From assembly GCA_002403105.1 (NCBI GenBank), contig DHHD01000106.1:18-64017 (forward strand): a stretch of DNA of 64,000 bases. Reading direction: 5' to 3'. The notes below the pieces were generated by a model. It was not told where the DNA came from. It ran no database searches and saw only the letters and a list, made by a program, of their open reading frames with translations. The DNA comes from Anaerolineaceae bacterium UBA4781 (GTDB lineage: Bacteria; Chloroflexota; Anaerolineae; Anaerolineales; Anaerolineaceae). The stretch's first letter is position 1. Each line of letters opens with the position of its first letter. A program made the position numbers and the translations under genes. Positions 5,890-63,327 of the stretch are shown here, piece by piece.

Positions 5890-7685
5890 GCCTTCTCCTG
5901 ATCGTTGAAACATCCGACGATCCATTTTGCTGTCAAAGAAAGTCCATCTAAACAAGCGATCTTTCGAATCTTGTCAGCATATATTGGAAAATTCATCATG
6001 AGTATTTGTGCCATTTGCCCATCACGGTTCGCTTCGATTACATAAATACGTTCATGGTTCTTAATAAATTCTTTCAGTTCGTCTTGAAAAGGTATCGAGC
6101 GGATGCGTAGATAATCTACTTTTTTTCCTGCTTCTTTCAGATTATCACATGCTTCTTCAGTTCCATAGTGAGAAGACCCGTAGGATAAGAATCCAACAGC
6201 ACCGTGATTCTCTCTTTCCAATATAGGATTGGGGTCAATTTCAAGTGATTTTTGAAATTTCTTTTTGATTCTGTCATGTTCGTTCTTCCAGGTTTCCGGG
6301 TCTTCCGTATAATTCGCGAATTCGTCATGCCCCGTTCCTCGAGCAAAATATGCAGCTTTTGAATGGGTATTCCCAGGCAATGTTCGATACGTAATACCGT
6401 CACCATCTACGTCAGAATATCTGCCCCATTTCCTTTCAGTTTTTCTTAATATCTTTTCAATATCCTCTTCCCATAAGATCTTCCCTCGTTGAATGGGAGT
6501 TTTAGGATAGATAAATTTTGGTGTCATCCAATTATTCATCCCCAAATCCAAATCGCTTAACACGATCACCGGAGTTTGAATCTGTTCAGCAATATCTAAA
6601 GCTCTCCAACCGAATTCAAAGCATTCCTGAACACTGCCGGGCAGAAGAATTATATAATCTGTATCTCCATGACTCAAGAAATAAGAGAAAGTTAGATCAC
6701 CTTGTGAAGTCCGTGTTGGTAAGCCCGTGCTCGGGCCAACACGCTGAACATCCCAAATTACCACAGGCACTTCACTCTGATATGCCAGTCCGATATATTC
6801 GGCCATTAAGCATAAACCAGGGCCGGATGTTGAAGTCATCGAACGCAGCCCTGCCCATCCCGCACCAATTGTCATCCCAATGGCTGCCAGTTCGTCTTCA
6901 GCTTGAACAATCACACAGGTTGTCTTTCCTGTTTCAGGATCATTTCTCAATTGGGGATTATATTCATTTAAACATTCCGCCAACTCGGTAGCAGGCGTTA
7001 TAGGATACCAGGCAGAAAATTGTAATCCGCCAAATAATGCCCCGAGTGCTGCTGCTTGGTTACCATCCGTGACAATAAAATTTTCAGTTAAATTGCGTTT
7101 TTCCAATTTATAAGTGCAGGTATTTTTAGATACCTGTGTCACAGTGTCATGCGCAGCTTGCACAACATCCATATTCGGTTTGACTGCTTTGTTACTATTA
7201 TTAAAATGTTGATTTAATGTTTCTTCAATTAACGGCAATTCGATTTCGATAAGAGCTGACAACACCCCTACATAAACCATGTTCATTAGGTAAACATTCA
7301 AATTGGCTGGCGATTCTGTTTTTTCCAGTACTTCCTGTATGGGTAATTGCAGTACCTGGAATTGGTGAGAAATAGAATCCGGTATCGGTTGATCAGATAA
7401 TATTAATCCCCCTTTTTTTGTTTTTTCAATATCATCCAGCAGAACTGCCTTGTTCAGGTTTATTAGAATATCAAATTCATCTACTCTTGCTAAATGCTTT
7501 TTCTCACTTACTCGCAATGAATACCAGGTAGGAAGTCCCTGAATATTGGATGGAAAAATATTTCGAGATGAAATAGGAATTCCCATCTTGAAGATCGCCT
7601 TCATTAATGCATTATTTGCTGTTGCACTTCCCGACCCATTAACGGTACTGACCAATATTGAGAATTCATTTATTGTTTTTTGCAT
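5886..7685 (-). CDS. 2-oxoacid:ferredoxin oxidoreductase, fused gamma-alpha subunit
   Basis: N-terminal POR-gamma-like segment followed by an alpha-type domain; adjacent and translationally coupled to the beta subunit. Confidence 0.85.
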   Translation of the reverse strand: MQKTINEFSILVSTVNGSGSATANNALMKAIFKMGIPISSRNIFPSNIQGLPTWYSLRVSEKKHLARVDEFDILINLNKAVLLDDIEKTKKGGLILSDQPIPDSISHQFQVLQLPIQEVLEKTESPANLNVYLMNMVYVGVLSALIEIELPLIEETLNQHFNNSNKAVKPNMDVVQAAHDTVTQVSKNTCTYKLEKRNLTENFIVTDGNQAAALGALFGGLQFSAWYPITPATELAECLNEYNPQLRNDPETGKTTCVIVQAEDELAAIGMTIGAGWAGLRSMTSTSGPGLCLMAEYIGLAYQSEVPVVIWDVQRVGPSTGLPTRTSQGDLTFSYFLSHGDTDYIILLPGSVQECFEFGWRALDIAEQIQTPVIVLSDLDLGMNNWMTPKFIYPKTPIQRGKILWEEDIEKILRKTERKWGRYSDVDGDGITYRTLPGNTHSKAAYFARGTGHDEFANYTEDPETWKNEHDRIKKKFQKSLEIDPNPILERENHGAVGFLSYGSSHYGTEEACDNLKEAGKKVDYLRIRSIPFQDELKEFIKNHERIYVIEANRDGQMAQILMMNFPIYADKIRKIACLDGLSLTAKWIVGCFNDQEKA

Positions 7686-13841: not shown

Positions 13842-13904
13842 GTATACCTCCATGGTTTTCGGTAAGATTATGAATTAGTCAGATCTTACTGACTAAATAC
13901 TATT

Positions 13905-14055
13905 TTGGGGAAAGGGCACGGATAGTTTTTTGATTTTGTTATCCGGGAAGGCATCCGCCGAACTCTCGATTTTCTTGCACCGTTGTGCAATTAGTTCTAC
14001 CTTGCAGTAGAAAACCTTCATCCTCGTCATCCCATCCTGGATGGGATCAGGCGCT
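13905..14055 (-). ncRNA. glmS leader: glmS ribozyme
   Basis: The minus strand reads A|GCGCC ... GACGAGGAUGAAGG ... AAUCGAGAGUUCGGCGGAUGCCUUCCCGG, matching the remembered glmS ribozyme core; located directly upstream of glmS. Confidence 0.8.
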
Positions 14056-14095
14056 ATTCCTTTCCTTGGCTCTGGTCTTTCCAGAACCAAGGCGT

Positions 14096-14175: not shown

Positions 14176-14342
14176 GTGAGAAGAGTTCGAGTGCTTCGAC
14201 ACCGAAGGGGCAATTCTGCAAAACTTGCAGAAGAATCTCTCAGGTAAAAAGACTCACTGCCAATAAACTCTGGAGAGCATAATGGATGCACCGACGGGGC
14301 AAGCCGCTTTTGAAGGCGAATCTCTCAGGTAAAATAACAGAG
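14176..14342 (+). promoter_or_regulatory. Tandem glycine riboswitch (two aptamers)
   Basis: Aptamer 1 has P1 GTGAG/CTCAC (14176..14257) with 'CACCGAAGGGGCAA' and 'CTCTCAGGTAAAAAGAC'. Aptamer 2 has P1 CTCTG/CAGAG (14268..14342) with 'CTGGAGAG', 'GCACCGACGGGGCAA' and 'CTCTCAGGTAAAATAAC'. Confidence 0.85.
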
Positions 14343-14387
14343 ATGTACAATTTTTATGTACCTCAAAAAAATAAACAGGAGTAAAAG

Positions 14388-22859: not shown

Positions 22860-25800
22860 TTATCTCTTCTCAAAAATACGATTTGCCAGAATAATACCCA
22901 GCTTTTCACGTAAATCATCATCCGTTGGATTCAAGGCCGCTGCTTTCCGTAGATAGGTTTCAGCTTTTTCTGAATCACCTAGTTGATTATATACTTTGGA
23001 TGCCTTTTCATATATTAAATAATGTTCTTTGCAGTTATCGATGGCAGCTTTAATAATAGCTTCTGCCCGGTGTCCCTCACGCCGGTTGATAAGTGTTTCT
23101 GTTAATTCCAAATATGCTTCCATTTCATGTGAGTTCTGTTTAATGGCTTTATCCAAGTGGAATACTGCATTATCCAAATTCCCTTTTTTTATCGATAAAA
23201 TACCGATCATTTTATGGATTTCTGACTGATCATCATCCATCTGAATTGATTTTTCATAAACCTGGAGTGGGTCATCCTGATTACCGGCTTCATAAAGCAG
23301 CCGAGCATAGCGATTGAGTAACTCTTTATCTGGATTTTCTGATTTTTCTAAATATCCTTCAAGAAAATCAATCGCACGTTTCTTCCCACGAACTTTTTCC
23401 AGATAGGCAGCTTTTTCAAGAATCAATTGGTCATTTACGATATTTGAATCCAGCGCTTTTTCGATGATTTCCAACCCGAACTCGTCATTCTCTTGCAAAG
23501 ATTTAATTTTTGCCAATTCGATGATGACTTCTGGTGATTTTGGATCGATCCGATAGGCATCACGAATTAACTCCATCGCTTTTGGAATGCTTCCTAACTG
23601 CTCGGCAATACGCGCTTGAATTAAGAGCAGCTCAAGATCATCCTTGAAAGATGATTTCAACATATTGATAGTACCCAATGCTTTCCTGAATTCCCCATTT
23701 TGATAATATGCATTGACTAATTTTCGAAGGATTCCATGATTACTCTCGAATAGTTCTTGGTTTTTTTCAAAGATCTCAATGACTTTTTTGTAATCTTTGA
23801 TCGAATATAGATTTTCCAAATATTCTTTTTTATTTTCTTGATTTTTTGGATCTAAAGTGACAGCCTGTTCGGAATGGGAAACCGCCTTCTGTAATTCACC
23901 TTTTTCCTCATATAAGCTTGCCAACTGGGCACACCAGGTTGATTCGTCTTTTAGAAATCCTATGGCTGTTTCGAGCGCATTAATAGCCAGATCAGTTTCT
24001 TTCTCGTATATGAATATTTTTGCAAGTCCAGCCGAGAGATATGGATTTTTCTTATTTTGAAAAAGCGCAGCATTGAACGCCGAAATGAGATCGCGATATT
24101 GTTCTTCGGGGTACAAAGCCAACGCAATGAGAGGAAGGTCATATTCTTTTTGATTGGCTTCGATGATCTTGAGAATGCTGTCATAATCTTTCATCTGGTT
24201 GCTTTGCAGTATTGCACAAACCACAGAAATAAATTCAATTTTTGTTTGCTGTATATCTTTATTTGAATAACCAGCATTCAGCAAAAATTCATGAATACCT
24301 GCATATTGGTTCTGTATATCCGTAGAGAGAAGACTTATTTGTTCAGATAGATTCAAGAATTCTGGATTTTGAAGAATAGCGGGCAGATTTCGGTTGACTC
24401 CAATGTTCTTGAAACTCCATTCTTTCAAAGCAAGTTTTAGTATCTGACTGAGGGCATTTGCTTTTAGTGCTGAAAAATATGCTGGGAAATCAAAACATTG
24501 CAGATATGTTTGAACCGCTTTTTCCCAATCCCCCATTTCAAAAGCACAATCCGCTTCCCATTTTGGGAAATTGATGAGGGAAGCCAGAATGTTTTTATCC
24601 AGGTCACTTGCGCTATTCTTAGGTTCGGATTGCTTTTCGGCCGCTTGTTCATAGATGGTTTGGGCATCAACGAAATTATTATTTTTTCGTAATAAACGAG
24701 CTTTCGCGAAAAGGATGCGCTGGTCTTCCAGCATTTCTGCTGAGAGCGTATTGATCTTTGCAGCAGCCGCAACTTCATTCCCATTTTCCAGAAGGATATT
24801 CAGGATAAAGCCAGTCAATACCCGCACTTTTTGCACATCTTGTAAGGTGTTCAAGTTCTCAAGCAATCGTACCCAATCTATCGCTCCTTGATCACCATTT
24901 TTTAACCAGGCATAAATTGCTAAATAAACACTTGTTACAACATCTTCGGTTGGAAAATCGGACAGAGAATTCATGAATCGATAATCCAATTCATCATTCT
25001 TCGCCTCCAACATTGTTGAAAGCGCCAATTTAATCCAAATATCATTCGAAGAAAATGCCTCGGTCCATTCGGAAGGGAAAATGCTGTGTACATGTTTCGG
25101 TAAATTGAAAAGTTGCTTTTCAATCGTTTGTCTGTTTTCCAATGTTTGGATAAGTTTTTGAGGTTCAGAATTTTTGCCATCAGCCAAAGCCATGATTGCT
25201 TCGCGAACAATATTCCAAACCTCAGTTTGTTGGAGAGGATCCAGACAGGAAACTGCATTCGCATAATCGCCTTGATTCCAATAGACGCAGGCTTTTAGAA
25301 TACATGTTTCCGGATCATTCTGATTTGATTTTTGAAGTTTTTGAATGATCTTGATGCTCAAATCGTGAAGATGAGATTCCTGAGCAACCTTTAGTGCAGT
25401 TTGCAGATCTTTTGCAGTAGTTTTTTCCAAAGCGATCAGGTCATTGATGATCAATTTTGTATCGTTTTGTGAACCATATTGGTTTTCAAAACGCATTCTT
25501 TCTACAAGAAAATCCGGTGAGGATTGATGGTTCTTGGCTTCATCTGAAAAATAAGAACGCACTTCTTCCGGTTTTCCTAATTTCAGCATTTGGTTGCCAT
25601 ACCAGGCTGTAATCCTTCTATCTTTTGTACAGATCAAACGAGCTTTTTTTGCAATCGCCACCGCTTCTTCACCAAGATTTTTTTCACTATACGCATCTAC
25701 CAATAAGCCATAGATGGAAAGGTTTTCGGGTTGTGCTTGAGATGCTTCATTCAACAAAGTAATCGCTGTTTCTGTCTGTCTGATCTTCAGCATGGTGCAT

Positions 25801-27965
25801 GCCAAGCCCACCTGAGCTCGCCATAGATCCTGCCGATTTTTACTCAAAGAATTTTCCAGGATCAATTCTTTGAATGCTGTAGTCGCTTTGTTCGTATCAT
25901 CCAGGAGAAACTGCACTTCTGCTTCGATTAATCCTCTCCAATAATTTTCTGCAGGTAACTTTTGGATATTATGCAAAATGGAATTAAGTTCAGAAATTTC
26001 CAGTCGTTGAGTACCAAGAGGAAAAATAGTTTTGTTGCTTTTCAAGGTAGATATGGATTCCAATACAATAAAATCCGCGTTCTCCCCTTTTTCCTCTTTT
26101 ATTAATTTTAAAGTTTCATTCGCTTGATCGTTTTCACCATTTTCCATCAGAACATCGGCGGTTATCATTCCGAGGTCTGGATTCAGTGGGAAAGAGTGAA
26201 TCGCTTTTAACGCAAGCTCATAAGCATGTTCAGTGAGTCGTTTTTGATTCAGATAGTCCACGATAGCTGCAACTGCTTCCGGATTACCATTTTCCACATC
26301 GATCTTCTCGATCAACGACAATCCACGATCTTCATCACCACAATCCAGCATTGCTAGAATTAACTGTTCATAAAAACCTTTCCGCTCCTGAAATATTTCG
26401 AGTGTTTGGTTAAGCACCTGTTCGGCATTTTCTTTTTTCTTTGTCTTGCAAAGACAATAATATAAATTGATCCAAGTTTTATAATCCGTACTTCCGGCAG
26501 AGATGGATTGTTCAAAATGATTTTGGGCTTTTTCCCACTCTTCCACATCCATATAGAGATCACCAATCTCAAATAAAGACTGTGCGTTTTCACTGAATAG
26601 ACCGGAGGGTAGACCTTCCAGCCGCTGCTTAACAGCGATTGTCTCATCTTTTTCCAGCAGTGCTTTGGATTCCACATAAAACTGGGTGAAATCTAAACTT
26701 ACTGCCTGTTTCTTGTCGACCTTATTGATTTGTTGAAGTGCAGCTTTCCATTGGTGGTTTTCGATTAGGTAATCAAATAGTTCTTTATCCAGATCTTGAT
26801 TTTTATCATCTAGAATTCTGGCAATTTTCAAATAATGGATTGAGCGGAGATGATCGCCGAGTGAATGATACAGTTCAGCGATCTGCAGTAGAAATTGACT
26901 GTCTTTTGGATTTTTGGATATTTTTTCTTCAATGCTATGTAGATATTCTTCAATGTCCTGGTAGGTCGTCTTCTTCAAAACAAGGGATTGGTTAAGATCA
27001 GGAATTCTTTTCCAATCATATTGTTGGAGTGATGCTTGAGTATGATCTGCCTGTACTTTCTGAGACTCTCTATGTGACAAGATATTCTGCTGTTTTTTTT
27101 GGACACCCTGCTTTAAGGCATCCAGTTTTTGCATCAGTTTCTCAATTTCAAAAATGGATTCTGTTTCATTCCCTTCCAGAAAATGAATGTCAGCTAAATA
27201 ATTTAATTTTTGAAGATCCGAAAGTTCTTGCTGTAAAGTACTTTGAGATTCCGATGAAATCACCTTGCTTGTTTTCTCTATCTCGCCTTGCGTCAACAAA
27301 CGAGTTAATGGGATCCGACCTTCTTTCGCAATGAACTGCAGAATTTCTATTTTTTCTTCACTATTTAAGTCGATCAGGAGATTTTTCAGGTCTTCTTCCT
27401 GAGCCGTGAGAGACACAGGATTGCAGAAAAGACCATATATGAACATTTTCTTGATTTCAAGATTTTTTGAAGCCGCTATTTCTTTGGTAATGAATTCGCT
27501 TGAATTAACAAGTCCAAGCAAACAAGCCGCCACGAGTCCTGCATTATGATTGAATTGAAAATCATGCAAGAATTCTTTTTCAAATTCGGTCCATTTTTTG
27601 GATCCCAGCATAGTAAAGAATCCTTGTGAAATTTCTGCAGCCTGAACTAGATCGATCGCATTCTCTTCTTTCAGAGCAGAATCGGGTACTTGAGAAAAAA
27701 CCTGTTCCTCATTTAACTTTTGATCTTTGATTATCTCTGAAAGATCATATTTCCAATTCTTTTCATCTTTTAAAATAAATGCAAAATAGACCGGCTTCCA
27801 ATTTTCTAAAGTTTTTAACCGGTCTATCTCTTTTTTTTCGCTCAGTTCGAGCTGAGAAAGTGCTTCAAGGACTCTTTTATCTTGCAGGAGGCAAGTAACG
27901 AGAACCTGTTTTTCTTCCTCTTGGAAATTATTCTCGATGAGCTCGAGGAATTCCGCAGGTATCAT
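22860..27965 (-). CDS. 1701-aa TPR-repeat protein
   Basis: Uninterrupted 5.1-kb ORF. Recurrent 34-residue TPR-like patterns (A/Y/L at repeat positions) through most of its length; no signal peptide and no P-loop seen. Confidence 0.8.
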   Translation of the reverse strand: MIPAEFLELIENNFQEEEKQVLVTCLLQDKRVLEALSQLELSEKKEIDRLKTLENWKPVYFAFILKDEKNWKYDLSEIIKDQKLNEEQVFSQVPDSALKEENAIDLVQAAEISQGFFTMLGSKKWTEFEKEFLHDFQFNHNAGLVAACLLGLVNSSEFITKEIAASKNLEIKKMFIYGLFCNPVSLTAQEEDLKNLLIDLNSEEKIEILQFIAKEGRIPLTRLLTQGEIEKTSKVISSESQSTLQQELSDLQKLNYLADIHFLEGNETESIFEIEKLMQKLDALKQGVQKKQQNILSHRESQKVQADHTQASLQQYDWKRIPDLNQSLVLKKTTYQDIEEYLHSIEEKISKNPKDSQFLLQIAELYHSLGDHLRSIHYLKIARILDDKNQDLDKELFDYLIENHQWKAALQQINKVDKKQAVSLDFTQFYVESKALLEKDETIAVKQRLEGLPSGLFSENAQSLFEIGDLYMDVEEWEKAQNHFEQSISAGSTDYKTWINLYYCLCKTKKKENAEQVLNQTLEIFQERKGFYEQLILAMLDCGDEDRGLSLIEKIDVENGNPEAVAAIVDYLNQKRLTEHAYELALKAIHSFPLNPDLGMITADVLMENGENDQANETLKLIKEEKGENADFIVLESISTLKSNKTIFPLGTQRLEISELNSILHNIQKLPAENYWRGLIEAEVQFLLDDTNKATTAFKELILENSLSKNRQDLWRAQVGLACTMLKIRQTETAITLLNEASQAQPENLSIYGLLVDAYSEKNLGEEAVAIAKKARLICTKDRRITAWYGNQMLKLGKPEEVRSYFSDEAKNHQSSPDFLVERMRFENQYGSQNDTKLIINDLIALEKTTAKDLQTALKVAQESHLHDLSIKIIQKLQKSNQNDPETCILKACVYWNQGDYANAVSCLDPLQQTEVWNIVREAIMALADGKNSEPQKLIQTLENRQTIEKQLFNLPKHVHSIFPSEWTEAFSSNDIWIKLALSTMLEAKNDELDYRFMNSLSDFPTEDVVTSVYLAIYAWLKNGDQGAIDWVRLLENLNTLQDVQKVRVLTGFILNILLENGNEVAAAAKINTLSAEMLEDQRILFAKARLLRKNNNFVDAQTIYEQAAEKQSEPKNSASDLDKNILASLINFPKWEADCAFEMGDWEKAVQTYLQCFDFPAYFSALKANALSQILKLALKEWSFKNIGVNRNLPAILQNPEFLNLSEQISLLSTDIQNQYAGIHEFLLNAGYSNKDIQQTKIEFISVVCAILQSNQMKDYDSILKIIEANQKEYDLPLIALALYPEEQYRDLISAFNAALFQNKKNPYLSAGLAKIFIYEKETDLAINALETAIGFLKDESTWCAQLASLYEEKGELQKAVSHSEQAVTLDPKNQENKKEYLENLYSIKDYKKVIEIFEKNQELFESNHGILRKLVNAYYQNGEFRKALGTINMLKSSFKDDLELLLIQARIAEQLGSIPKAMELIRDAYRIDPKSPEVIIELAKIKSLQENDEFGLEIIEKALDSNIVNDQLILEKAAYLEKVRGKKRAIDFLEGYLEKSENPDKELLNRYARLLYEAGNQDDPLQVYEKSIQMDDDQSEIHKMIGILSIKKGNLDNAVFHLDKAIKQNSHEMEAYLELTETLINRREGHRAEAIIKAAIDNCKEHYLIYEKASKVYNQLGDSEKAETYLRKAAALNPTDDDLREKLGIILANRIFEKR

Positions 27966-35155: not shown

Positions 35156-35836
35156 CTAAAGGGGATATGCAATAATGAATAAACGACCCCACGAATCAAC
35201 ACTGTTTTTCTGGATACAGGTTTGTAAGGTCACATGAGGATCACCCGAATACATTTGGTAGAAAACATCCGCAGCAGAATAAGTTTCTCCAGTCACAAGA
35301 TCAGTGAAATCACTGAAAGAAGAGTTGGGAGAGAGTGCCTGATATTGATAGATTTCTTCAACTTTGTAAAAGTCAATATCACCATCTCCATATATGATCT
35401 CAATAATATTTCCATAAGTCAGATCAGAGAAATATTGCCCGGCAGCAGTATTATGTGCCAGCAAACCGATCGTATTATATTTCTTTGCCATACGGAATTG
35501 CGTAGCAACATCATCGTCTGTTGAAACATAACCTGCATTACTGGAAGGTTGTTGAACAACTTTCAATGCAAAAACGTTTGTTACATATACTCCCCTTATA
35601 CTTTCACTCTGTCCATCACTAACAGTATTCACAAACTGACTGATGGTTATTTGCTCAGGCTGAACTGCGTAATCATCATTAAAGCTTATGAATGAATTTA
35701 ATTTCACCGGAATGTTAACAGAGCCCGATCTTGTGATCGGAATTTTTATAGTAATTGCTTGATTAAAGAATAGAAAAACCGAAGTAAGCAGAATGATTTG
35801 AAGCAGTTTTTTCGTTTGTCTGGCTCTCATTCTCAA
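35156..35836 (-). CDS. Membrane-anchored protein with sortase-like His / TLxTC / Arg pattern
   Basis: N-terminal hydrophobic anchor, then 'LLAHN', 'VTLQTCI' and 'GRLFIIAYP' in sortase order. Motif-level only; ATG 35830 is an alternative to TTG 35836. Confidence 0.45.
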   Translation of the reverse strand: MRMRARQTKKLLQIILLTSVFLFFNQAITIKIPITRSGSVNIPVKLNSFISFNDDYAVQPEQITISQFVNTVSDGQSESIRGVYVTNVFALKVVQQPSSNAGYVSTDDDVATQFRMAKKYNTIGLLAHNTAAGQYFSDLTYGNIIEIIYGDGDIDFYKVEEIYQYQALSPNSSFSDFTDLVTGETYSAADVFYQMYSGDPHVTLQTCIQKNSVDSWGRLFIIAYPL

Positions 35837-35890
35837 TCCTTTTCGATAAGAGCGCTGAAAAAACTGGTATTTTATTAAATACTCTCGTTT

Positions 35891-35970
35891 TCGGTAGTCT
35901 GGCGATCATTGCATTTTTATGCTGTAGATCCATGACTTTGCGTCCCCAGTTTTCACTGAGTTTGCTCTTA
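35891..35970. repeat. Structured direct repeat, copy 1
   Basis: Aligns without gaps to 36041..36120 (offset exactly 150 nt, 64 of 80 positions identical by hand count). Confidence 0.8.
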
Positions 35971-36040
35971 TCGAACGATTCACGAACACAAAAAAACCTA
36001 TTTACACAGGTTTCTGTCTCTTTAATAAATAAAAAAGACT

Positions 36041-36120
36041 TCGGAAACCTGGCGATCATTGCGTTTTCACGCTGTAGACCCATAGTTTTGCGTCCCCGGT
36101 TTTCACCGGGTTTGCCTTTT
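36041..36120. repeat. Structured direct repeat, copy 2
   Basis: See copy 1; contains hairpins GCGT-TTTC-ACGC and CCCGG-TTTTCA-CCGGG. Confidence 0.8.
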
Positions 36121-36218
36121 CGTGTCTCGTTTTATAAATGTTCTAGTAAAATTCTATCATAAATCTACCAATTTTGAGATATAACTCACAAGAGTTTTAT
36201 TTGAGAGAAGGTCAGTTC

Positions 36219-56893: not shown

Positions 56894-56898
56894 AAATA

Positions 56899-56930
56899 AA
56901 CGAACGGGATGGCAATTCATCCCGTTCGTT
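56899..56930. terminator. Bidirectional intrinsic terminator between rel and the ECF operon
   Basis: AACGAACGGGATG-GCAATT-CATCCCGTTCGTT 13-bp stem with A/T-rich flanks. Confidence 0.75.
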
Positions 56931-56963
56931 CTTCGTTCCGAAAGCCTTCATGTACAGATTTGT

Positions 56964-57443
56964 TTACTTGTTTATTTGTAATTCCATGATCGCGTAAACC
57001 CAACGATTAGCAGGGGTTGAGGGTGCGACCAAGCGAATGGGTCCTTTATCAGTTTCAATTTCTGCGATCCAATCATCGCCATCTTTCAATGCAATGATCG
57101 CGCCTGTAAGTTCTTCTTTGGTGATTTCGATGGAATATCCATCCGACGCAATGGCTGTGATAGAAACATAATCAGCAGCAGCCCCGGCTTTGGTTAGAAT
57201 TTCATCTAATGATACTCCTGACCATGAAGTGATCACGTCATCACCGGTTGTTTTTTCCATCAGAATATCATTTAATTCAATTTGATCCATGGCTGCCAGA
57301 TCGGCAAAGGATAATTCTAATGGTGTTGTCACTTCTCCAGATATTTTTAACGTCCAATCCACATCTGGAGCTTTCGGACCACAACCCACCAGGAAAGCCG
57401 CTAATAAAACAATAGTAAGAAGTGCAGTATTTTTCTTTGTCAT
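56964..57443 (-). CDS. Lipoprotein made of one sulfite-oxidase-fold ('Oxidored_molyb')-like domain
   Basis: Lipobox 'LVGC'; 'SWSGVSLDEIL', 'ASDGYS', 'GPIRLVAPS', 'NRWVYAI'. No cysteine after the lipobox, no twin-arginine. Confidence 0.6.
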   Translation of the reverse strand: MTKKNTALLTIVLLAAFLVGCGPKAPDVDWTLKISGEVTTPLELSFADLAAMDQIELNDILMEKTTGDDVITSWSGVSLDEILTKAGAAADYVSITAIASDGYSIEITKEELTGAIIALKDGDDWIAEIETDKGPIRLVAPSTPANRWVYAIMELQINK

Positions 57444-57477
57444 TTTTTTCTCCTTTTAATTTTGGCTTTCGAACTAC

Positions 57478-58614
57478 CTATTTTTGATACAGGATGATAT
57501 AGATTCCCATATCATCCAAACGAAGATTTCCATGAGTTCCCAGTGAAGAATCTCCTACAATTGAATGCATCCCATGATCAGGGAAGAGAACTATCAGGGT
57601 TTTTTCTGGAAGCTGCTCAATGAGCTGCCCTACCATTCTATCCACTTCGCTAACCTTTTCATTCCATTCCAGGGAATATGGTCCATATGTATGCCCTGCA
57701 TCGTCAATACCATGAAAGTGGATCATTATCAGATCCGGTATCCCTTCTGCAATTGCCTTCTGTGCATTCTCAAAAACATTATCATCGGTTGATCCATCAC
57801 CATTTCGATCACCGGATAAAATTATTTCCGCATTGGGATAGTTAAAAGGCGTGCTGCTTCCTTCAACTATGGTCATATGCTTTCCTGAATCAACAACCGC
57901 ATCGATAATACTGGGGACGGTGAGATCCCGAATGCCGGGAGCCCATACGCCATTCTCTCTCGAATCAAGCCCCGAAAGAAGTGCTGCTGTTGATGTGCTT
58001 GTTTTTGGTGGATAAATGGTATATGCCGGGTAAAGTTCTCCTATGATCGATAAATTTGGTATGAACCCCTCCTCTTCTGCTGTTTGATATCCTTCATAAC
58101 CGAAACCATCCAGAAAGATCCAAACTACATGTTCCATGGAACCGGATGGAATAGAAAATCCAGATTCTTTTTCACCAAAGGGAATGCTCAATGCTTCAGA
58201 TGTTAATGCAGCGATATCGGTTATGGAATGCTTCTCAAATTTCGCATCCCCACCCGTCCGCAGGATGATCTTATCGACCAGATACTCTTCATCATCGACC
58301 TCCAGGCTGCTGACATTGCGCCAAAAAGTAGAATCAGCGATATCTTTCCATTGGAAAGTAGTTTTCGTATCACCTTGCAAGATATCCATTTCTTCAACTA
58401 CTTTTACATCGTATTGATAAAAAAGATATTCCAGTAGAAGGTCATAATCTTTTTCATCATCCACATTAACCATTTCTTCAATTTTTTGATAGTCTGTTTT
58501 TGTAATGTTGTTCTCCTGCCCATCGATCGAAACGATGAGATCACTGCTGGCTTTCGAGCATGCGCATAATCCTGCAAATGTAAGAATGAGAACAATATTG
58601 ATGAATCGCTTCAT
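57478..58614 (-). CDS. Lipoprotein of the nucleotide pyrophosphatase/phosphodiesterase (AlkP superfamily) type
   Basis: Lipobox 'LCAC'; 'IFLDGFG', 'YPPKTSTSTAALLSG', 'HGIDDAGHTYGP', 'FPDHGMH'. Confidence 0.7.
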   Translation of the reverse strand: MKRFINIVLILTFAGLCACSKASSDLIVSIDGQENNITKTDYQKIEEMVNVDDEKDYDLLLEYLFYQYDVKVVEEMDILQGDTKTTFQWKDIADSTFWRNVSSLEVDDEEYLVDKIILRTGGDAKFEKHSITDIAALTSEALSIPFGEKESGFSIPSGSMEHVVWIFLDGFGYEGYQTAEEEGFIPNLSIIGELYPAYTIYPPKTSTSTAALLSGLDSRENGVWAPGIRDLTVPSIIDAVVDSGKHMTIVEGSSTPFNYPNAEIILSGDRNGDGSTDDNVFENAQKAIAEGIPDLIMIHFHGIDDAGHTYGPYSLEWNEKVSEVDRMVGQLIEQLPEKTLIVLFPDHGMHSIVGDSSLGTHGNLRLDDMGIYIILYQK

Positions 58615-58616
58615 GG

Positions 58617-59546
58617 TTATTTCCCTTCAATTTTTATAATATCGAACACCCAATCACTTCGACCTTGGCCCGGAATGATCAACACAACAGAGGTGTTTTG
58701 TTTGGTTAGAATTCCATCTTTGATCTCTTCCACAGGTAGGATGATTGTCGAACCATCTTGCAGAGTGAATGTTACATTTTCATAGTTTTCCAATTGCAGC
58801 AAATCGGTCACGGCTGCCCCTTCCACTCTGCTTGAAGTGATCGCCTCACGTGTCAAACCATCCTCTTCACTGCGAAACATTACTTTCGCTTCTTCGACAG
58901 TGATAGAAGTTGTCTTACTCAGCAGCAATCTTCCAATGGATGTTTGTTCATCACCTATTTGGAGAGGTTTCTCTTCACTGATGATAATGATCCGAGCAAT
59001 TCCTTTTGCCCAGGTTGAAACATGCAGGTCATCCGACGCGAAACGAATTCCATCTTCATAGGGGAGAAACATGGCATTTCCAGTAACATCACTCTTATTG
59101 ATCTTCACAAATTCCCCATCCCGGGTATACAGGGTGATGCTTTCGTAGTCAGTGATCTCCCATTTTGCAAGAAATTCATCAACGGTGATAAACGTGTTTG
59201 GAAGATCTGAATAACTATTGAAGAAATGATTCCATGGAATAAAGGTTACTTCTGCCACATCACCGGTAAGTTCTATCATGTTATAAAATGATAATTCGGG
59301 TAGCTCAACGGATCCATGCTCATCATGACAGGTGCTACAAGTGTGAAATTCCTCTTTTGTCTCGTGGCATTCCGCGCACTCGTGCATGGTGGTAGTTTCT
59401 TCCCACAAAGTATCAAAAGTATATTCGGTTAGCACTCTAACCGGTAGCTGTTTAACAGAGAGCATAAAAATGAGAGCAACCAAGGCAGCCACGCTGATGA
59501 AGATGCCAATAATTCTTAAAGTCTTTTTTGTCTTGGGCGATTTCAT
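58617..59546 (-). CDS. N-terminally anchored di-haem c-type cytochrome with repeated extracytoplasmic domains
   Basis: TM anchor, 'CAECH' and 'CSTCH' (59325..59378), then 'DYESITLYTRDGEF ... STWAKGIARIII'. ATG 59546 overlaps the ecfT stop as ATGA (alternative ATG 59561). Confidence 0.6.
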   Translation of the reverse strand: MKSPKTKKTLRIIGIFISVAALVALIFMLSVKQLPVRVLTEYTFDTLWEETTTMHECAECHETKEEFHTCSTCHDEHGSVELPELSFYNMIELTGDVAEVTFIPWNHFFNSYSDLPNTFITVDEFLAKWEITDYESITLYTRDGEFVKINKSDVTGNAMFLPYEDGIRFASDDLHVSTWAKGIARIIIISEEKPLQIGDEQTSIGRLLLSKTTSITVEEAKVMFRSEEDGLTREAITSSRVEGAAVTDLLQLENYENVTFTLQDGSTIILPVEEIKDGILTKQNTSVVLIIPGQGRSDWVFDIIKIEGK

Positions 59547-60313
59547 ACAAATCCTTTCCATTTCAAATAATAAAAGAAAAGCACAAACAGGAATGCGATC
59601 CCCAGGATAATTCCATCACGAAATGTAAAATGAAGGGGATTTTGATAGGTTCTAGTTGCATATCTGCCAAAGCTTCGACTTTCCATGGAGATGGCCAATT
59701 TATTAATCCGATTAATGAGAGAGTAGAGAACAGCCCCGATGTAGATATTCATGTGCAGGATCATTTCACCCGGTTTTCGAAAGTCGTAACGTACACCGCG
59801 CAACCTCTGGGAAAAATTGACGCGTTCACCATCGATCGATAAAATCGGCACCAACCGCATGGAAGTAACGATCATGAATGCATAACGATATGGAACCCCC
59901 ATTTGCATAAAGGCAAATGCAAAATCGGAAGGAGATGTTGTAAGAATAAAAAGATAACTGCATAAAATGATCACAAGGAATCGAATGGAGATCAGTACTG
60001 CTCTTTGAATTCCAATATTCGTGATCGATAAACCAAAAATATTAGTCAGTTCACTTCCCTGCTTTACAAAAGTACATTGTATGATCCCGATCATCAGCGC
60101 AGTTAAAAAGGTCGTACGCATTCCAAAATACGCAAAGGGATTTCGGCAAACTGTCAAAAAGCCAAAAACCAGCACAATAAACAAAAAGAACATCAAGATA
60201 GGTGAATCAATAAAAAATATCGAAACACTGAGCCCCAACAATAAACTAAATTTAGTGAATGGGTGCAGGGCATGCAGCATTGTATTGGCCGGAGAATAGG
60301 CGATTTTTTTCAT
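59543..60313 (-). CDS. ecfT: ECF transporter transmembrane (T) component
   Basis: Polytopic CbiQ-like protein with 'SQRLRGV'; ATG 60313 overlaps the ecfA stop as ATGA. Confidence 0.8.
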   Translation of the reverse strand: MKKIAYSPANTMLHALHPFTKFSLLLGLSVSIFFIDSPILMFFLFIVLVFGFLTVCRNPFAYFGMRTTFLTALMIGIIQCTFVKQGSELTNIFGLSITNIGIQRAVLISIRFLVIILCSYLFILTTSPSDFAFAFMQMGVPYRYAFMIVTSMRLVPILSIDGERVNFSQRLRGVRYDFRKPGEMILHMNIYIGAVLYSLINRINKLAISMESRSFGRYATRTYQNPLHFTFRDGIILGIAFLFVLFFYYLKWKGFV

Positions 60314-61782
60314 AACCCCGAATCCTTCTCCGGAAGATATTCCCCGTACCCATTCACCTGCCACCAAATGACCGCTTCCTGCAAAGGCAGGCAGAAACGC
60401 ATTTTGCCATCCTCTAGAAAGAGTATGCGATCTGCCATTCGTTTCATCAATGCCGGGTCATGGATAGCCGTAATGATGGTCATTCCGTTTTCCCTAAGAA
60501 ATTTTAATTTTCCTAGAATGTAATCCATTTGATATACATCCTGCCCAATAAAGATTTCATCTAAAAGTAAAAGTGAAGGTGAAAACACCAACGCTGAGAT
60601 AAGATTTAATCTTTTCTTTTCTCCATAGCTCAATTGGTGCGGATTAGCATTTAATTTATGGATCAGTCCGTAGTGGTCAAACAGTTCCTGTGCTTTTTCT
60701 TTGTGAAAAGCATCATCCATGTGAAAGTTTTTTAAACCATAGGTAACTTCATCCTGCACGGTATTCATAAAGATCTGATCATCCGCATTCTGAAAAACCA
60801 AACCTATTTGAGGTGCTGTTAATTGCTCTACCCTCTCTCCATTGAAATTCATTTGCCCCTGCTGGGTGTGTACCATTCCCGTAATGGTTTTAAAGAACGT
60901 GGTCTTTCCAGAACCGTTGGCACCCATTAAAGCCAGGATTTCACCATGTTGTATCTCAAGTTCTTCAATTTCTAATCGAAAACCATTTCCGTTTTCGTAT
61001 GACCAGTCATGAATGGAAAGAATGAGTTCGGTATTGTTGTTTTTTTCTCCTGGATGTAAAAATTTTGTTTTTAAATGGACCTTATAGAATGGTGATTCTT
61101 CAATTGCTCCATCAAAAATAATTTTTCCATTTTCAATGTGAATACAACGATTGAAGAGATCTTCGAAAAAATGTACTTTATGTTCGATGATGATCACGGT
61201 TAAATTCATCGATTTTTGTAAATTTTTAAGCACCTCAAAGATCGCATGAGTTGATTCCAGGTCAAGATTGGAGGTAGGTTCATCTAAAATCAAAATGGAT
61301 GGCTGCAGGGCAAGGATGGAAGCAATTGCCACCTTTTGTTTTTCTCCTCCCGACAATTCAAAGAGCTGACGCGAGTATAAAGACTCTGCTCCTGTGATCT
61401 TCAAAGCATCGGCAATCCGTTTTTTTATCTCGTCCGGATCAGTACATTTATTCTCCAGACCAAAAGCGAGTTCATCCGCAACATTCAATGCGCAAAATTG
61501 ATCATCTGCATTCTGCTGGACAAATCCAATTGCATCCGAAATCCAATAGAGCGGTGTTTTTTCAATGGCTTGCTCATCAATACGCACATGCCCTTGATAA
61601 ACGCCCATTTGCTGATGGTAGAGAATTCCTGCAATCGCGTATGCCAGGGTAGTCTTTCCACTGCCCGAACATCCGCTGATCAAGATCCATTCTCCTCCAG
61701 CAATTTGCATATTAATATCATCTAGAATGAGTTTTTCTTTTTCTTTGTACCGATAGGTGAGATGCGCGATTTCTATATCCAT
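60310..61782 (-). CDS. ecfA: ECF transporter ATPase, tandem ABC domains (EcfA-EcfA' fusion)
   Basis: Two Walker A sites ('GCSGSGKTT', 'GANGSGKTT'), two signatures ('LSGGEKQ', 'LSYGEKK'), two Walker B sites ('ILILDEP', 'LLLLDE'). Confidence 0.85.
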   Translation of the reverse strand: MDIEIAHLTYRYKEKEKLILDDINMQIAGGEWILISGCSGSGKTTLAYAIAGILYHQQMGVYQGHVRIDEQAIEKTPLYWISDAIGFVQQNADDQFCALNVADELAFGLENKCTDPDEIKKRIADALKITGAESLYSRQLFELSGGEKQKVAIASILALQPSILILDEPTSNLDLESTHAIFEVLKNLQKSMNLTVIIIEHKVHFFEDLFNRCIHIENGKIIFDGAIEESPFYKVHLKTKFLHPGEKNNNTELILSIHDWSYENGNGFRLEIEELEIQHGEILALMGANGSGKTTFFKTITGMVHTQQGQMNFNGERVEQLTAPQIGLVFQNADDQIFMNTVQDEVTYGLKNFHMDDAFHKEKAQELFDHYGLIHKLNANPHQLSYGEKKRLNLISALVFSPSLLLLDEIFIGQDVYQMDYILGKLKFLRENGMTIITAIHDPALMKRMADRILFLEDGKMRFCLPLQEAVIWWQVNGYGEYLPEKDSGL

Positions 61783-61787
61783 CTTGA

Positions 61788-63143
61788 TTACTGTAAATCA
61801 ATTCGTTCAATATTCTCTAAAAATACTTCTCCCTGGATCGTTCCAACCAGATATTTCATTTCGTAACCGGTAATATTGACAAAAATGCGAATGGAATCGT
61901 CTTTTTGAATGCTTGCAAGGTCAAAATCAAATTCGCTGTCTGCACTTGAAAATTTCATTATTGAGAATGAAATAGCAGTATCGACTGTCGTAAGCACTTT
62001 ATTGACAGCCACTCCCTGCAGTTTCTTCGATCCTTCTTCTAATGCAAAGTGAACGCTATCCATTTCAAACTGCCAATCTTGTGAATGGAATTCCGCCACC
62101 TGCTGTTCACCATAATAAATAGGAATTGGCATGCTTTGAATAACACTCATTTCTGCAACGCCCCGAATCCAGGCTTTACTGTTCTCAGCGCCGACCACAC
62201 TGTAGCTGGCATCCGATCCTTCTCCATCAACAACCAGGATGAGATCCGGATTGGTATTCACTTCATCCATGGTGATAAAGTAGCTGTACCCATCCGTTGC
62301 CGTAACCAATATCAGGTCTGCACCCTTACCAGGAATGGCTGTTTCAAGGATTTGCTTGAGCGGGTAACCTGTATACGTTCCTGCTTTACCCTGTAGATTG
62401 GATTCAACAGTAATTTTTTCTATAACCGTGTTTTTTACATCAAAACTTTGTTCGGCTGCTACATTCCCTGAAATTGAGACTGTTCCTTCACCCTTCGAAA
62501 TCTGTACATATACATAAGCAGAAACTGTACAGATCAGGATTGCCAGTAAAACAGAACCAATTTTGAACCATTTTGCTCTGCCTTTTTCAGGTTCCGGTGC
62601 AATGACTCCACTTTTTGCAAGATTTTTTAGCACCAGTTGGCTCAATATACCACCGAAAATAACTCCTGAAAGAAGTGCTACTCCAGCCACCGCGAGCAGG
62701 CTCCAAAAAGCCAGACTATCCGCAGGGACGGAAGCGAAGATCTGGAACACAAACACATTCGACATGGCAGCTAAAGCGCCAGCGAGGAGATTTTTTATGT
62801 ATTTGCTGATAACAGGCAGGTAAAAAACCAGTTCGACGATCAAACCAGCCACCACATCCACGATCAGTACCAAAACACCATGCGTGTTTCCACTCAATAA
62901 CTCCACAACCCCCTTCAAAATACCTGTTAATACTGCAGTTCCGGGTTTGTTTACGATCCCGACAGCCAGCAGGATCCATAAAATATGAATTCCGGCTGCC
63001 CACTGGGTCGTCCCGGCAAATCCAAGCAAAGATTGAAAAAAATCACCGACCATGTTGAGATAGGTACTTGCCAATCCCCCGATTGCAGAAAAACCAGCGA
63101 TGAAGAGTAAGTCTTTGGTGCTGAAATAATAGCTCTTTTTCAT
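61788..63143 (-). CDS. ECF S-component-like membrane domain fused through a 7th TM to two extracytoplasmic domains
   Basis: Six hydrophobic helices in the first 200 aa or so, a 7th TM ('WFKIGSVLLAILICTVSAYVYV'), then 'YTGYPLKQIL ... ATDGYSY ... KAWIRGVAEMSVI'. ATG 63143 lies 6 nt after GGAG. Confidence 0.6.
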   Translation of the reverse strand: MKKSYYFSTKDLLFIAGFSAIGGLASTYLNMVGDFFQSLLGFAGTTQWAAGIHILWILLAVGIVNKPGTAVLTGILKGVVELLSGNTHGVLVLIVDVVAGLIVELVFYLPVISKYIKNLLAGALAAMSNVFVFQIFASVPADSLAFWSLLAVAGVALLSGVIFGGILSQLVLKNLAKSGVIAPEPEKGRAKWFKIGSVLLAILICTVSAYVYVQISKGEGTVSISGNVAAEQSFDVKNTVIEKITVESNLQGKAGTYTGYPLKQILETAIPGKGADLILVTATDGYSYFITMDEVNTNPDLILVVDGEGSDASYSVVGAENSKAWIRGVAEMSVIQSMPIPIYYGEQQVAEFHSQDWQFEMDSVHFALEEGSKKLQGVAVNKVLTTVDTAISFSIMKFSSADSEFDFDLASIQKDDSIRIFVNITGYEMKYLVGTIQGEVFLENIERIDLQ

Positions 63144-63158
63144 GGTCTTCTCCATAAT

Positions 63159-63182
63159 AAAAAACGCCTGTGGAAAGGCGTT
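63159..63182 (-). terminator. Leader intrinsic terminator (attenuator) in front of the ECF operon
   Basis: Minus strand AACGCCU-UUCCAC-AGGCGUU followed by UUUU, ending just upstream of the RBS. Confidence 0.7.
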
Positions 63183-63327
63183 GGTTAATAAGGACAATTC
63201 ATTCAATTATCCTTTTTACATCTCCTTTCCAAAGAGGGAGGCGTTCGTGTTTCCACTTACACCCTAGCGGTCTCAAAACCATAACATTCATCGTCGTAGA
63301 TTAAGAGACTCGAAGATGCACTCTTTG
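63183..63327 (-). promoter_or_regulatory. Candidate riboswitch aptamer / structured leader, class unassigned
   Basis: Closing helix CAAAGAG (63327..63321) / CUCUUUG (63236..63230), internal helices, a 10-bp hairpin at 63190..63214, and an antiterminator option against the terminator. Confidence 0.5.

Follow-up and report, generated by a model that had tools for sequence, protein, structure and literature searches.

The stretch of DNA considered here, 64,000 nucleotides from Anaerolineaceae bacterium UBA4781 (contig DHHD01000106.1, positions 18 to 64,017 of the forward strand; hereafter the window), contains a six-gene operon that very probably encodes an energy-coupling factor (ECF) importer of the molybdenum cofactor/tungsten cofactor (Moco/Tuco) regulon. 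The operon is preceded by a Moco/Tuco riboswitch that is predicted to shut it off when cofactor is bound. Its S component is fused to extracytoplasmic domains related to the sulfite oxidase (SUOX) fold, and a lipoprotein of this fold, a di-haem cytochrome and a phosphodiesterase are encoded with it. A molybdopterin-type pterin is the best candidate for the cargo, although we hold this only tentatively and stop short of calling it probable.

The operon and its riboswitch

The six co-directional open reading frames (ORFs) lie on the minus strand at 56964-63143, according to the ORF list of the window, in the order S-A-T-H-N-M. S and A are separated by 5 nt, A and T as well as T and H overlap at ATGA, and gaps of 2 nt and 34 nt follow between H and N and between N and M, respectively. 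In the order of transcription, the elements are:

63206..63327 (-): Moco/Tuco riboswitch aptamer RF01055, without the P3 stem (Rfam 67.1 bits against a gathering score of 36, E=5.6e-14)
63157..63182 (-): expression platform, a terminator hairpin AACGCCU...AGGCGUU (63182-63163) with a U-tract (terminator scan)
61788..63143 (-): S, the S-component fusion, 451 aa (Pfam PF09819, ABC_cobalt/YkoE-type, E=1e-15)
60310..61782 (-): A, tandem EcfA-EcfA' ATPase, 490 aa (two ABC_tran domains, E=5e-55; TIGR04520 ECF_ATPase_1)
59543..60313 (-): T, EcfT, 256 aa from an ATG that overlaps the EcfA stop as ATGA (Pfam CbiQ, E=2.7e-23)
58617..59546 (-): H, membrane-anchored di-haem c-type cytochrome, 309 aa (two CXXCH motifs and a transmembrane (TM) anchor)
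57478..58614 (-): N, lipoprotein-type phosphodiesterase of the nucleotide pyrophosphatase/phosphodiesterase (NPP)/alkaline phosphatase superfamily, 378 aa (Pfam Phosphodiest PF01663, E=4.8e-23)
56964..57443 (-): M, 159-aa lipoprotein with a minimal Cys-less SUOX/PruR-fold domain, a putative soluble receptor (Pfam PF00174, E=1.1e-12)
56898..56931 (-): operon terminator, a 14-bp stem and T-run (terminator scan and sequence)

An earlier reading of the window from its letters alone had proposed six minus-strand genes with these junctions and this terminator, preceded by a structured leader. The ORF coordinates, the junction sequence and the terminator scan agree with it, as do the Pfam/NCBIfam annotation and the CXXCH and TM features of H with the six protein identities that it gave. 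The leader is the RF01055 riboswitch, which by Rfam places its ligand in the Moco/Tuco class. The start of S at 63143 has a GGAG 6 nt upstream, and homologues share its MKK.YYF N-terminus. At the other end, the operon terminator is shared tail-to-tail with a convergent relA/spoT gene, and RelA_SpoT is also the convergent neighbour in a related locus, L002. A horizontal-transfer island was considered and ruled out: GC content and skew are unremarkable, and the housekeeping neighbours (relA and the gene for phosphoenolpyruvate carboxykinase) are found in relatives, too.

A recognised S family, a CbiQ-type EcfT and two EcfA ATPase domains, all in a single operon, place the transporter in group I of the ECF systems; the tandem EcfA scores 324.5 bits to TIGR04520, with a cutoff of 315. 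We infer that the ECF module carries out ATP-dependent micronutrient import, with the direction deduced from the riboswitch logic alone.

How would the riboswitch act? In the window's aptamer, P3 is absent, positions 60-72 of the RF01055 model being deleted. The terminator hairpin is placed between the aptamer and the start codon of S. When GGAAAGG, the 3' strand of the aptamer's P5/P1, is left free in ViennaRNA folding, it pairs with CCUUUCC of the terminator, and the terminator is lost (-27.4 kcal/mol). When the aptamer is sequestered, the terminator forms. Since the closed aptamer lets the terminator form and the free GGAAAGG abolishes it, the platform is predicted to be an OFF switch, with termination when cofactor is bound. 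The related loci L002 and L037 show the same terminator/antiterminator design. The predicted logic agrees with the response to tungsten limitation in E. limosum, where operons with a P3-less riboswitch plus terminator rise under this condition (PMC11725836).

Related loci were counted among the best 80 of 178 species-representative genome matches; these 80 are all metagenome-assembled genomes (MAGs) of Anaerolineae (e.g., Pelolinea and Brevefilum). A covariance model built from four aptamers placed an aptamer upstream of the S gene in 65 of these 80 loci, and all of the 14 aptamers retested with Rfam were confirmed, at 57-79 bits. Both sides had changed in 17 of the 26 base pairs, and 93% of cells were paired, compared with less than 49% in slid controls. 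Of the 15 loci that have no riboswitch, ten carry a gene for a PadR-family regulator directly upstream of S and on the same strand (e.g., L076:9366-9905), which suggests that a protein regulator replaced the RNA switch in the riboswitch-less loci.

Does the aptamer type reveal the metal? In the scheme of Regulski 2008, P3-less aptamers correlate with tungsten-cofactor metabolism (Tuco), while those with P3 form the Moco class; this is a correlation, in which the ligand was not measured. The aptamer is P3-less in most relatives. P3 is present in six (L014:55-207, L016:109-264, L022:3245-3395, L024:1677-1831, L034:9375-9524 and L036:3953-4102), as determined by a partly successful regular expression and by Rfam alignments that confirmed P3 for three loci. 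Since these P3-containing aptamers stand before the same ECF operon, the rule that P3 tracks the metal maps poorly here. In L014, the operon has a P3-containing (Moco-class) aptamer and yet includes a TupA-like gene. All six P3-containing loci add a first gene after the riboswitch that encodes a 129-aa Cys-rich protein. This protein (L016:316-705) is cytoplasmic and consists of two repeats, each with a conserved cysteine pair, LPCP...CQLG(C/L)F; it has no Pfam/NCBIfam match beyond a weak one to DUF7645.

The S-component fusion and the shared fold

S consists of a YkoE-type six-helix core (aa 1-180), a seventh TM helix (aa 191-216) and two extracytoplasmic domains: domain 1, with the SUOX/PruR fold (aa 221-335; window 62139-62483), and domain 2 (aa 339-451; window 61791-62129). 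In a PDB profile search, the core matches YkoE of B. subtilis (PDB 5EDL) with E=1.5e-13, and this match, together with PF09819, secures its earlier identification as an ECF S component. The YkoE family, whose solved member binds thiamine, differs from the metal S units CbiM/NikM. An AlphaFold2 (AF2) model (pLDDT 82) has seven helices and two beta-rich domains, for which Foldseek returns YkoE at a TMt of 0.68 and SorA, YedY and PruR at a probability of 1.0. In this model, the seventh helix puts both beta domains outside the cell. Domain 1 carries D-G-Y286 and W325, and PF00174 is present in the precomputed annotation of many S homologues.

M is the smallest carrier of the fold. Its match to PF00174 (Oxidored_molyb) is over the gathering score, and its profile matches in the PDB are SorA (2e-5), YedY (2e-3) and PruR (4e-3). 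The AF2 model of M (pLDDT 86) retrieves SoxC, SorA, YedY and PruR by Foldseek, each with a probability of 1.0, and superimposes on PruR (7KOM, 7KOS and 7RKB; 134-149 aa) over the whole length of M with a TMt of 0.67-0.72. Judged by this model, M is equally close in fold to the pterin-binding PruR and to the SUOX enzymes. The Mo-ligand Cys102 of YedY aligns with Lys64 of M, which is nearly invariant and lies within a conserved M-x-K-S-x-G-E-D hairpin (M-E-K-S in M itself). The invariant residues of M are D101-G-Y103, R137 and N146-R-W148. M has the lipobox LVGC and no further Cys, leaving the mature protein Cys-free, and twin-arginine motifs are rare and typical of none of the M, N and H families. 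A classical SUOX enzyme exported by the twin-arginine translocation (Tat) pathway was therefore rejected, given the Lys at the Cys position, the lipobox and the lack of a dimerisation domain.

How many proteins of the operon share the fold? The sequence-only reading had counted four, all with Sec or lipoprotein signals. In profile-profile comparisons by hhalign with signal peptides removed, M matches domain 1 of S at 98%, the C-terminal domain of H at 96%, the first domain of H at 77% and domain 2 of S at 69%. The N-terminal domain of N, on the other hand, matches at 1.7%. An initial M-N match of 86% had arisen because the signal peptides were aligned, and N was rejected as a fourth carrier. 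The shared domain thus stands for M, S and H and falls for N. The SUOX-fold identity proposed for it is upheld in M by PF00174 and the Foldseek matches to SoxC, SorA and YedY, and the expected absence of twin-arginine signals and of cysteine in mature M by the motif survey and the lipobox.

The Cys-less M-type domain is widespread: a threshold of E<=1e-3 yields 1994 cluster representatives. The domain is often repeated in tandem, with 2-10 copies, in surface proteins of very large size that also contain PKD, SLH or NEAT-like parts, such as P0248 (1556 aa) and P0315 (2251 aa), and it overlaps the NCBIfam model "GEGP motif-containing diheme protein". The fusion partners of this wider family, nearly only tandem repeats of the same domain, plus PKD and SLH, gave no functional clue.

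The cytochrome and the phosphodiesterase

H has a basic N-terminus followed by a single hydrophobic TM helix. Its haem motifs, CAECH and CSTCH, follow this N-in anchor and would thus lie on the extracytoplasmic side, where haem attachment is predicted. Across 54 homologues, conservation of the motif C..CH.....H.C..CHD.HG is 90% or higher, and 49 of them have both CXXCH. The SUOX-like domains of H, at about aa 90-200 and 240-309, are degenerate and lack the DGY tyrosine.

The best PDB relatives of N are ENPP7 and a Xanthomonas NPP. The motifs that supply its metal ligands and nucleophile (LD..GY, YP..T, HFHGIDD.GH..GP and DHGMH) are retained across 48 homologues, and N is predicted to be a catalytically intact NPP-type enzyme that has kept the two-metal ligands and the Thr nucleophile. 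The family comprises 780 full-length homologues and tracks the operon. The N-terminal domain of N, about 140 aa, has no match to the M fold.

Conservation and gene neighbourhood

The S fusion has 376 database relatives and matches in 178 species-representative genomes; of these 178 matches, at least 80 species-level Anaerolineae genomes carry the operon. Among the 50 non-redundant loci whose sequence extends 5.3 kb or more beyond S on its downstream side, 41 have A, T, H, N and M colinear behind S. The exceptions are frameshifted assemblies, loci in which M, with a riboswitch of its own, lies on the other strand, or losses of N or H. Because dozens of diverged genomes show this architecture and gene order again, the operon is more than a chance arrangement, and the co-conservation of its six genes, on which the earlier proposal depended, is established by this synteny.

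In some relatives, the operon is joined to genes for tungstate uptake. A single riboswitch in L017 and L019 precedes tupB, tupC and tupA, followed by S-A-T-H-N-M, and two Oxidored_molyb domains form part of the TupA fusion protein there (NF041772, E=1e-66, TTTS motif). TupA-like genes lie beside the operon in eight distinct loci, these two and six more, and tupB and tupC adjoin it in 7-8. In relatives, the TupA-like proteins carry the SUOX-like fold once or twice as a fusion, in a subtype nearer to domain 1 of S than to M; this subtype is seen again in 41 loci, where it forms either the second domain of a long M variant or a paralogue of its own of about 150 aa. There are no tup genes in the window, nor any within 10 kb of the operon in the window's own clade. 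L014, L017, L019 and L029 have moaA and moaC beside the operon. When E. coli MoaA-E and MoeAB were searched against about 1.3 Mb of operon-flanking DNA, the window gave no match, and moaA/moaC in these four loci were the only ones found across the flanks.

Other variations were seen at single loci. An extra 225-aa polytopic membrane protein is encoded between the NPP gene and M in L014 (L014:7165-7842). In L021, tandem P3-less Moco-class aptamers (L021:7333-7456(-) and 7556-7679(-)) precede a gene divergent from the ECF operon, L021:4416-7157(-), that encodes a 913-aa MOP-type molybdopterin-dependent aldehyde oxidoreductase (NF045668, 1678 bits). M-like lipoprotein genes on the opposite strand have their own Moco-class riboswitch in L049 (L049:16203-16321(-)) and L080 (L080:18075-18224(-)), so that M would be under cofactor control independently of the transporter there. 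In a Brevefilum MAG, the ECF operon is followed at a distance of about 2 kb by a cobalamin riboswitch (L083:18268-18406).

What would the putative importer carry?

Several observations favour a molybdopterin-type pterin. The S family takes organic substrates, and every characterised member of the SUOX/PruR fold binds a pterin: monapterin/neopterin in the case of PruR, Moco in the others. A dinucleotide cofactor, unlike an oxyanion, would give a conserved extracellular phosphodiesterase a sensible task; extracellular pyrophosphatases likewise act ahead of NAD and FAD salvage. In L017 and L019, with tupBCA inside the ECF operon, tungstate is already served by a transporter of its own. That both P3-less and P3-containing aptamers precede the operon fits a cargo common to Moco and Tuco. 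PruR, a Cys-less truncated SUOX fold, binds monapterin/neopterin with the pterin sandwiched between a Tyr (N-x-Y) and a Trp (PMC11194511). The DGY tyrosine and C-terminal NRW tryptophan of M resemble this sandwich, in a likeness drawn by motif only. By analogy, the operon would mirror the salvage transporters of the ECF and ABC types that are controlled by thiamine pyrophosphate (TPP), flavin mononucleotide (FMN), tetrahydrofolate (THF), preQ1 and B12 riboswitches and serve the riboswitch's own ligand or a precursor of it (PMC3766115).

If so, the system might work as follows. At low intracellular Tuco/Moco, the aptamer would be open and the antiterminator would form, allowing the operon to be transcribed. 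Outside the cell, N would cleave a dinucleotide form of the cofactor (MGD/MCD-type) shed by other anaerobes, yielding a mononucleotide-free pterin. M would capture this pterin, with or without its metal, and pass it to domain 1 of S, which would load the YkoE-like pocket, and EcfT and EcfAA' would power import. H may keep the bound pterin/dithiolene reduced or shift the redox state of the metal for release, which is the weakest step of the scheme. In relatives with tupBCA in the operon, the metal would enter as tungstate via TupABC, whose binding protein has the same fold.

The whole would amount to an extracellular disassembly line and to the first prokaryotic transporter for the Mo/W pyranopterin cofactor or its metal-free pterin: the NPP trims, PruR-like receptors catch, the ECF module imports, TupABC brings the metal and the riboswitch shuts the system off. 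This complete picture is a possibility that we put forward with still more reserve than the cargo itself. The sequence-only reading had offered ECF-type cofactor traffic with dedicated binding and processing proteins as its first option. The Moco/Tuco OFF riboswitch, the YkoE-like S component and the PruR-like M speak for this option, with the cargo inferred; the shared domain that it claimed for N is not supported.

A number of points weigh against a pterin cargo. Free Moco and molybdopterin break down very readily, although the anoxic habitats of Anaerolineae lessen this problem. Carriers with moaA/moaC (L014, L017, L019 and L029) can make cyclic pyranopterin monophosphate and thus are not obligate salvagers. 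The fusion of TupA-like proteins to the same fold links it to tungstate handling, and the Lys in the K-S-x-G-E-D hairpin at the former Mo-Cys site could suit an oxyanion equally well. The tandem M-type repeats in large surface proteins look like a general binding module. None of the models accounts for the H cytochrome.

Could the operon import the metal instead? The ECF module would then be a high-affinity transporter for tungstate or molybdate (or for thio- or complexed W/Mo), with Cys-less SUOX-like domains re-used as oxyanion receptors that feed S and, in relatives, TupA. This is the most serious competitor of pterin import, though on balance unlikely. Tungstate transporters show riboswitch-OFF control, and the TupA fusions and the adjoining tupB and tupC fit with a metal cargo. 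The residues of M that are conserved around the Mo-ligand position (Lys64, Ser65, Glu68, Asp69, Arg137 and Arg147) could serve as well. Adjacent moaA-moaC indicates carriers that produce their own pterin, and with no tup genes within 10 kb in the window's clade, the ECF system could be the sole W/Mo route there. However, the S core falls into the YkoE family, whose units take organic substrates, and not into CbiM/NikM, and a conserved, predictedly intact NPP would have no obvious role. A tupBCA cluster and an ECF module for the same metal in one operon would be redundant, and the characterised members of the fold all bind pterins. To our knowledge, there is no ECF system that transports an oxyanion.

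The reverse direction, the second option of the sequence-only reading, is improbable. Here Moco/Tuco would leave the cell through the ECF module and be delivered to apo-domains exported by Sec (M, domain 1 of S and H), which with the di-haem cytochrome would make up an extracytoplasmic W/Mo-pterin oxidoreductase similar to SorAB, in parallel to the flavin export reported for extracellular electron transfer in Listeria. SUOX-fold domains with Sec or lipoprotein signals cannot be loaded with cofactor in the cytoplasm, and the pairing of the fold with a c-type cytochrome does recall SorAB, SorA being the best match in both sequence and fold. Moco-class riboswitches also precede genes for enzymes that use the cofactor, such as the aldehyde oxidoreductase of L021. 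On the other hand, outward delivery fits poorly with ligand-induced termination: under an OFF switch, the exporter would be made only when there is little cofactor to export (cf. PMC11725836). The Mo/W-ligating Cys is absent from all copies of the domain, with a Lys in M, and the H domains have lost the DGY tyrosine. The NPP would again be without a role, no maturation factor resembling a flavin transferase is present, and the adjacent tupBCA and moaAC point to acquisition or biosynthesis.

Still further from likely is a pterin system outside Moco, in which a PruR-like M binds a folate-branch pterin (monapterin/neopterin-type) for uptake or signalling and the riboswitch merely couples it to cofactor status: PruR is among the sequence-profile and fold matches of M and shares its size and fold, but its P-W motif at the Cys position and its dcpA-type diguanylate cyclase partner are missing, and the riboswitch and the tupBCA and moaAC neighbours point to Mo/W cofactor metabolism.

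Comparison with known systems

The closest parallel to the transporter core is YkoEDC of B. subtilis, a group I ECF system for hydroxymethylpyrimidine/thiamine under a TPP riboswitch. The two share the S family, a fused double ATPase, a CbiQ-type T, the single operon and control by a riboswitch for the end-product cofactor. Unlike YkoEDC, the operon has a Moco/Tuco riboswitch, a seventh S helix with two extracytoplasmic domains and the additional M, N and H, and it lacks a YkoF-like protein.

M is most similar to PruR of Agrobacterium, Vibrio and Klebsiella (PDB 7KOS, 7KOU, 7RKB and 7KP2), which is likewise small, secreted and mostly a truncated Cys-less SUOX fold, with Tyr and Trp at similar motif positions. 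At the Cys position, however, PruR has Pro-Trp (PMC11194511), whereas M has the Lys of its hairpin. PruR signals with the diguanylate cyclase DcpA; M has no such operon partner and belongs to a transporter operon of a monoderm Chloroflexota bacterium. Similarly, SorAB, SoxCD and YedY/MsrP provide the best matches to M and domain 1 of S and, like the operon, combine the fold with a c-type cytochrome in one operon. M has their Moco-domain fold but neither the Mo-ligating Cys, nor the Tat signal, nor the dimerisation domain, and it is exported as a lipoprotein or by Sec; being Cys-less and non-Tat, M and domain 1 of S are not members of the catalytic SUOX family.

TupABC under P3-less Tuco riboswitches occupies the same regulatory niche, and relatives share an operon with tupBCA and have TupA fused to the fold. 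TupABC is, however, a binding-protein-dependent ABC transporter, whereas the system in the window is of the ECF type, without tup genes and with an NPP enzyme and a cytochrome. Listeria RibU with FmnA/EetB is reportedly an ECF-based flavin export system for extracellular electron transfer. It resembles the operon in that an ECF transporter is tied genetically to extracytoplasmic cofactor-binding redox proteins; by contrast, the regulation of the operon argues for import, there is no flavin transferase and the cofactor class is another one. Trimming of dinucleotides outside the cell ahead of vitamin uptake is known from NadN/e(P4) with PnuC and from FAD pyrophosphatases with RibU. There, as here, a surface pyrophosphatase/phosphodiesterase is upstream of, or encoded with, a vitamin transporter, and the motifs of N are intact, but N differs in joining a short NPP core to a novel N-terminal domain, and a dinucleotide cofactor is only its putative substrate.

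Novelty and significance

Riboswitch-controlled ECF micronutrient importers are known, with salvage of thiamine, riboflavin, folate, queuosine precursors and cobalamin precursors as examples; what is new in the operon is its regulon, the architecture of its S unit and the accessory proteins. In the literature searched, no paper links an ECF transporter to a Moco riboswitch and none describes a bacterial Moco/molybdopterin transporter, in agreement with the earlier remark that no system of this composition had been described. We know of no bacterial uptake system for the Mo/W cofactor. A 2013 survey of riboswitch regulons has no category for Moco uptake (PMC3766115).

Whichever the cargo, the Moco/Tuco riboswitch regulon is enlarged. 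Public records name the proteins "ECF transporter S component", "molybdopterin-dependent oxidoreductase" and "alkaline phosphatase family protein", and the second of these names needs correcting for the Cys-less proteins in either case. If cofactor import is true, Moco/Tuco would be a shared public good in anoxic communities, like B12 and thiamine. If tungstate is the true cargo, the operon would encode the first ECF transporter of an oxyanion and put the SUOX fold to a new use. That C. elegans can live on Moco from its diet raises the question of how Moco moves between cells, and the operon provides a concrete, clonable gene set for this question and the best candidate yet for bacterial scavenging of the cofactor or the metal. 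It also bears on trace-metal and cofactor limitation in anaerobic digesters rich in Anaerolineae.

Other features of the window

The window contains several further RNA elements. Tandem c-di-GMP-I riboswitch aptamers (35890-35976(-) and 36040-36126(-); 82 and 85 bits) sit upstream of a 226-aa ORF (35156-35836(-)) that has no Pfam match. A 617-aa ORF is preceded by a glmS ribozyme at 13882-14066(-) that is barely over the gathering score (38.1 compared with 37). A glycine riboswitch with a single aptamer at 14260-14350(+) is followed by ORFs of 129, 450 and 487 aa, sizes that would fit gcvH-gcvPA-gcvPB. Finally, a 1701-aa protein encoded at 22860-27965(-) consists nearly throughout of TPR repeats.

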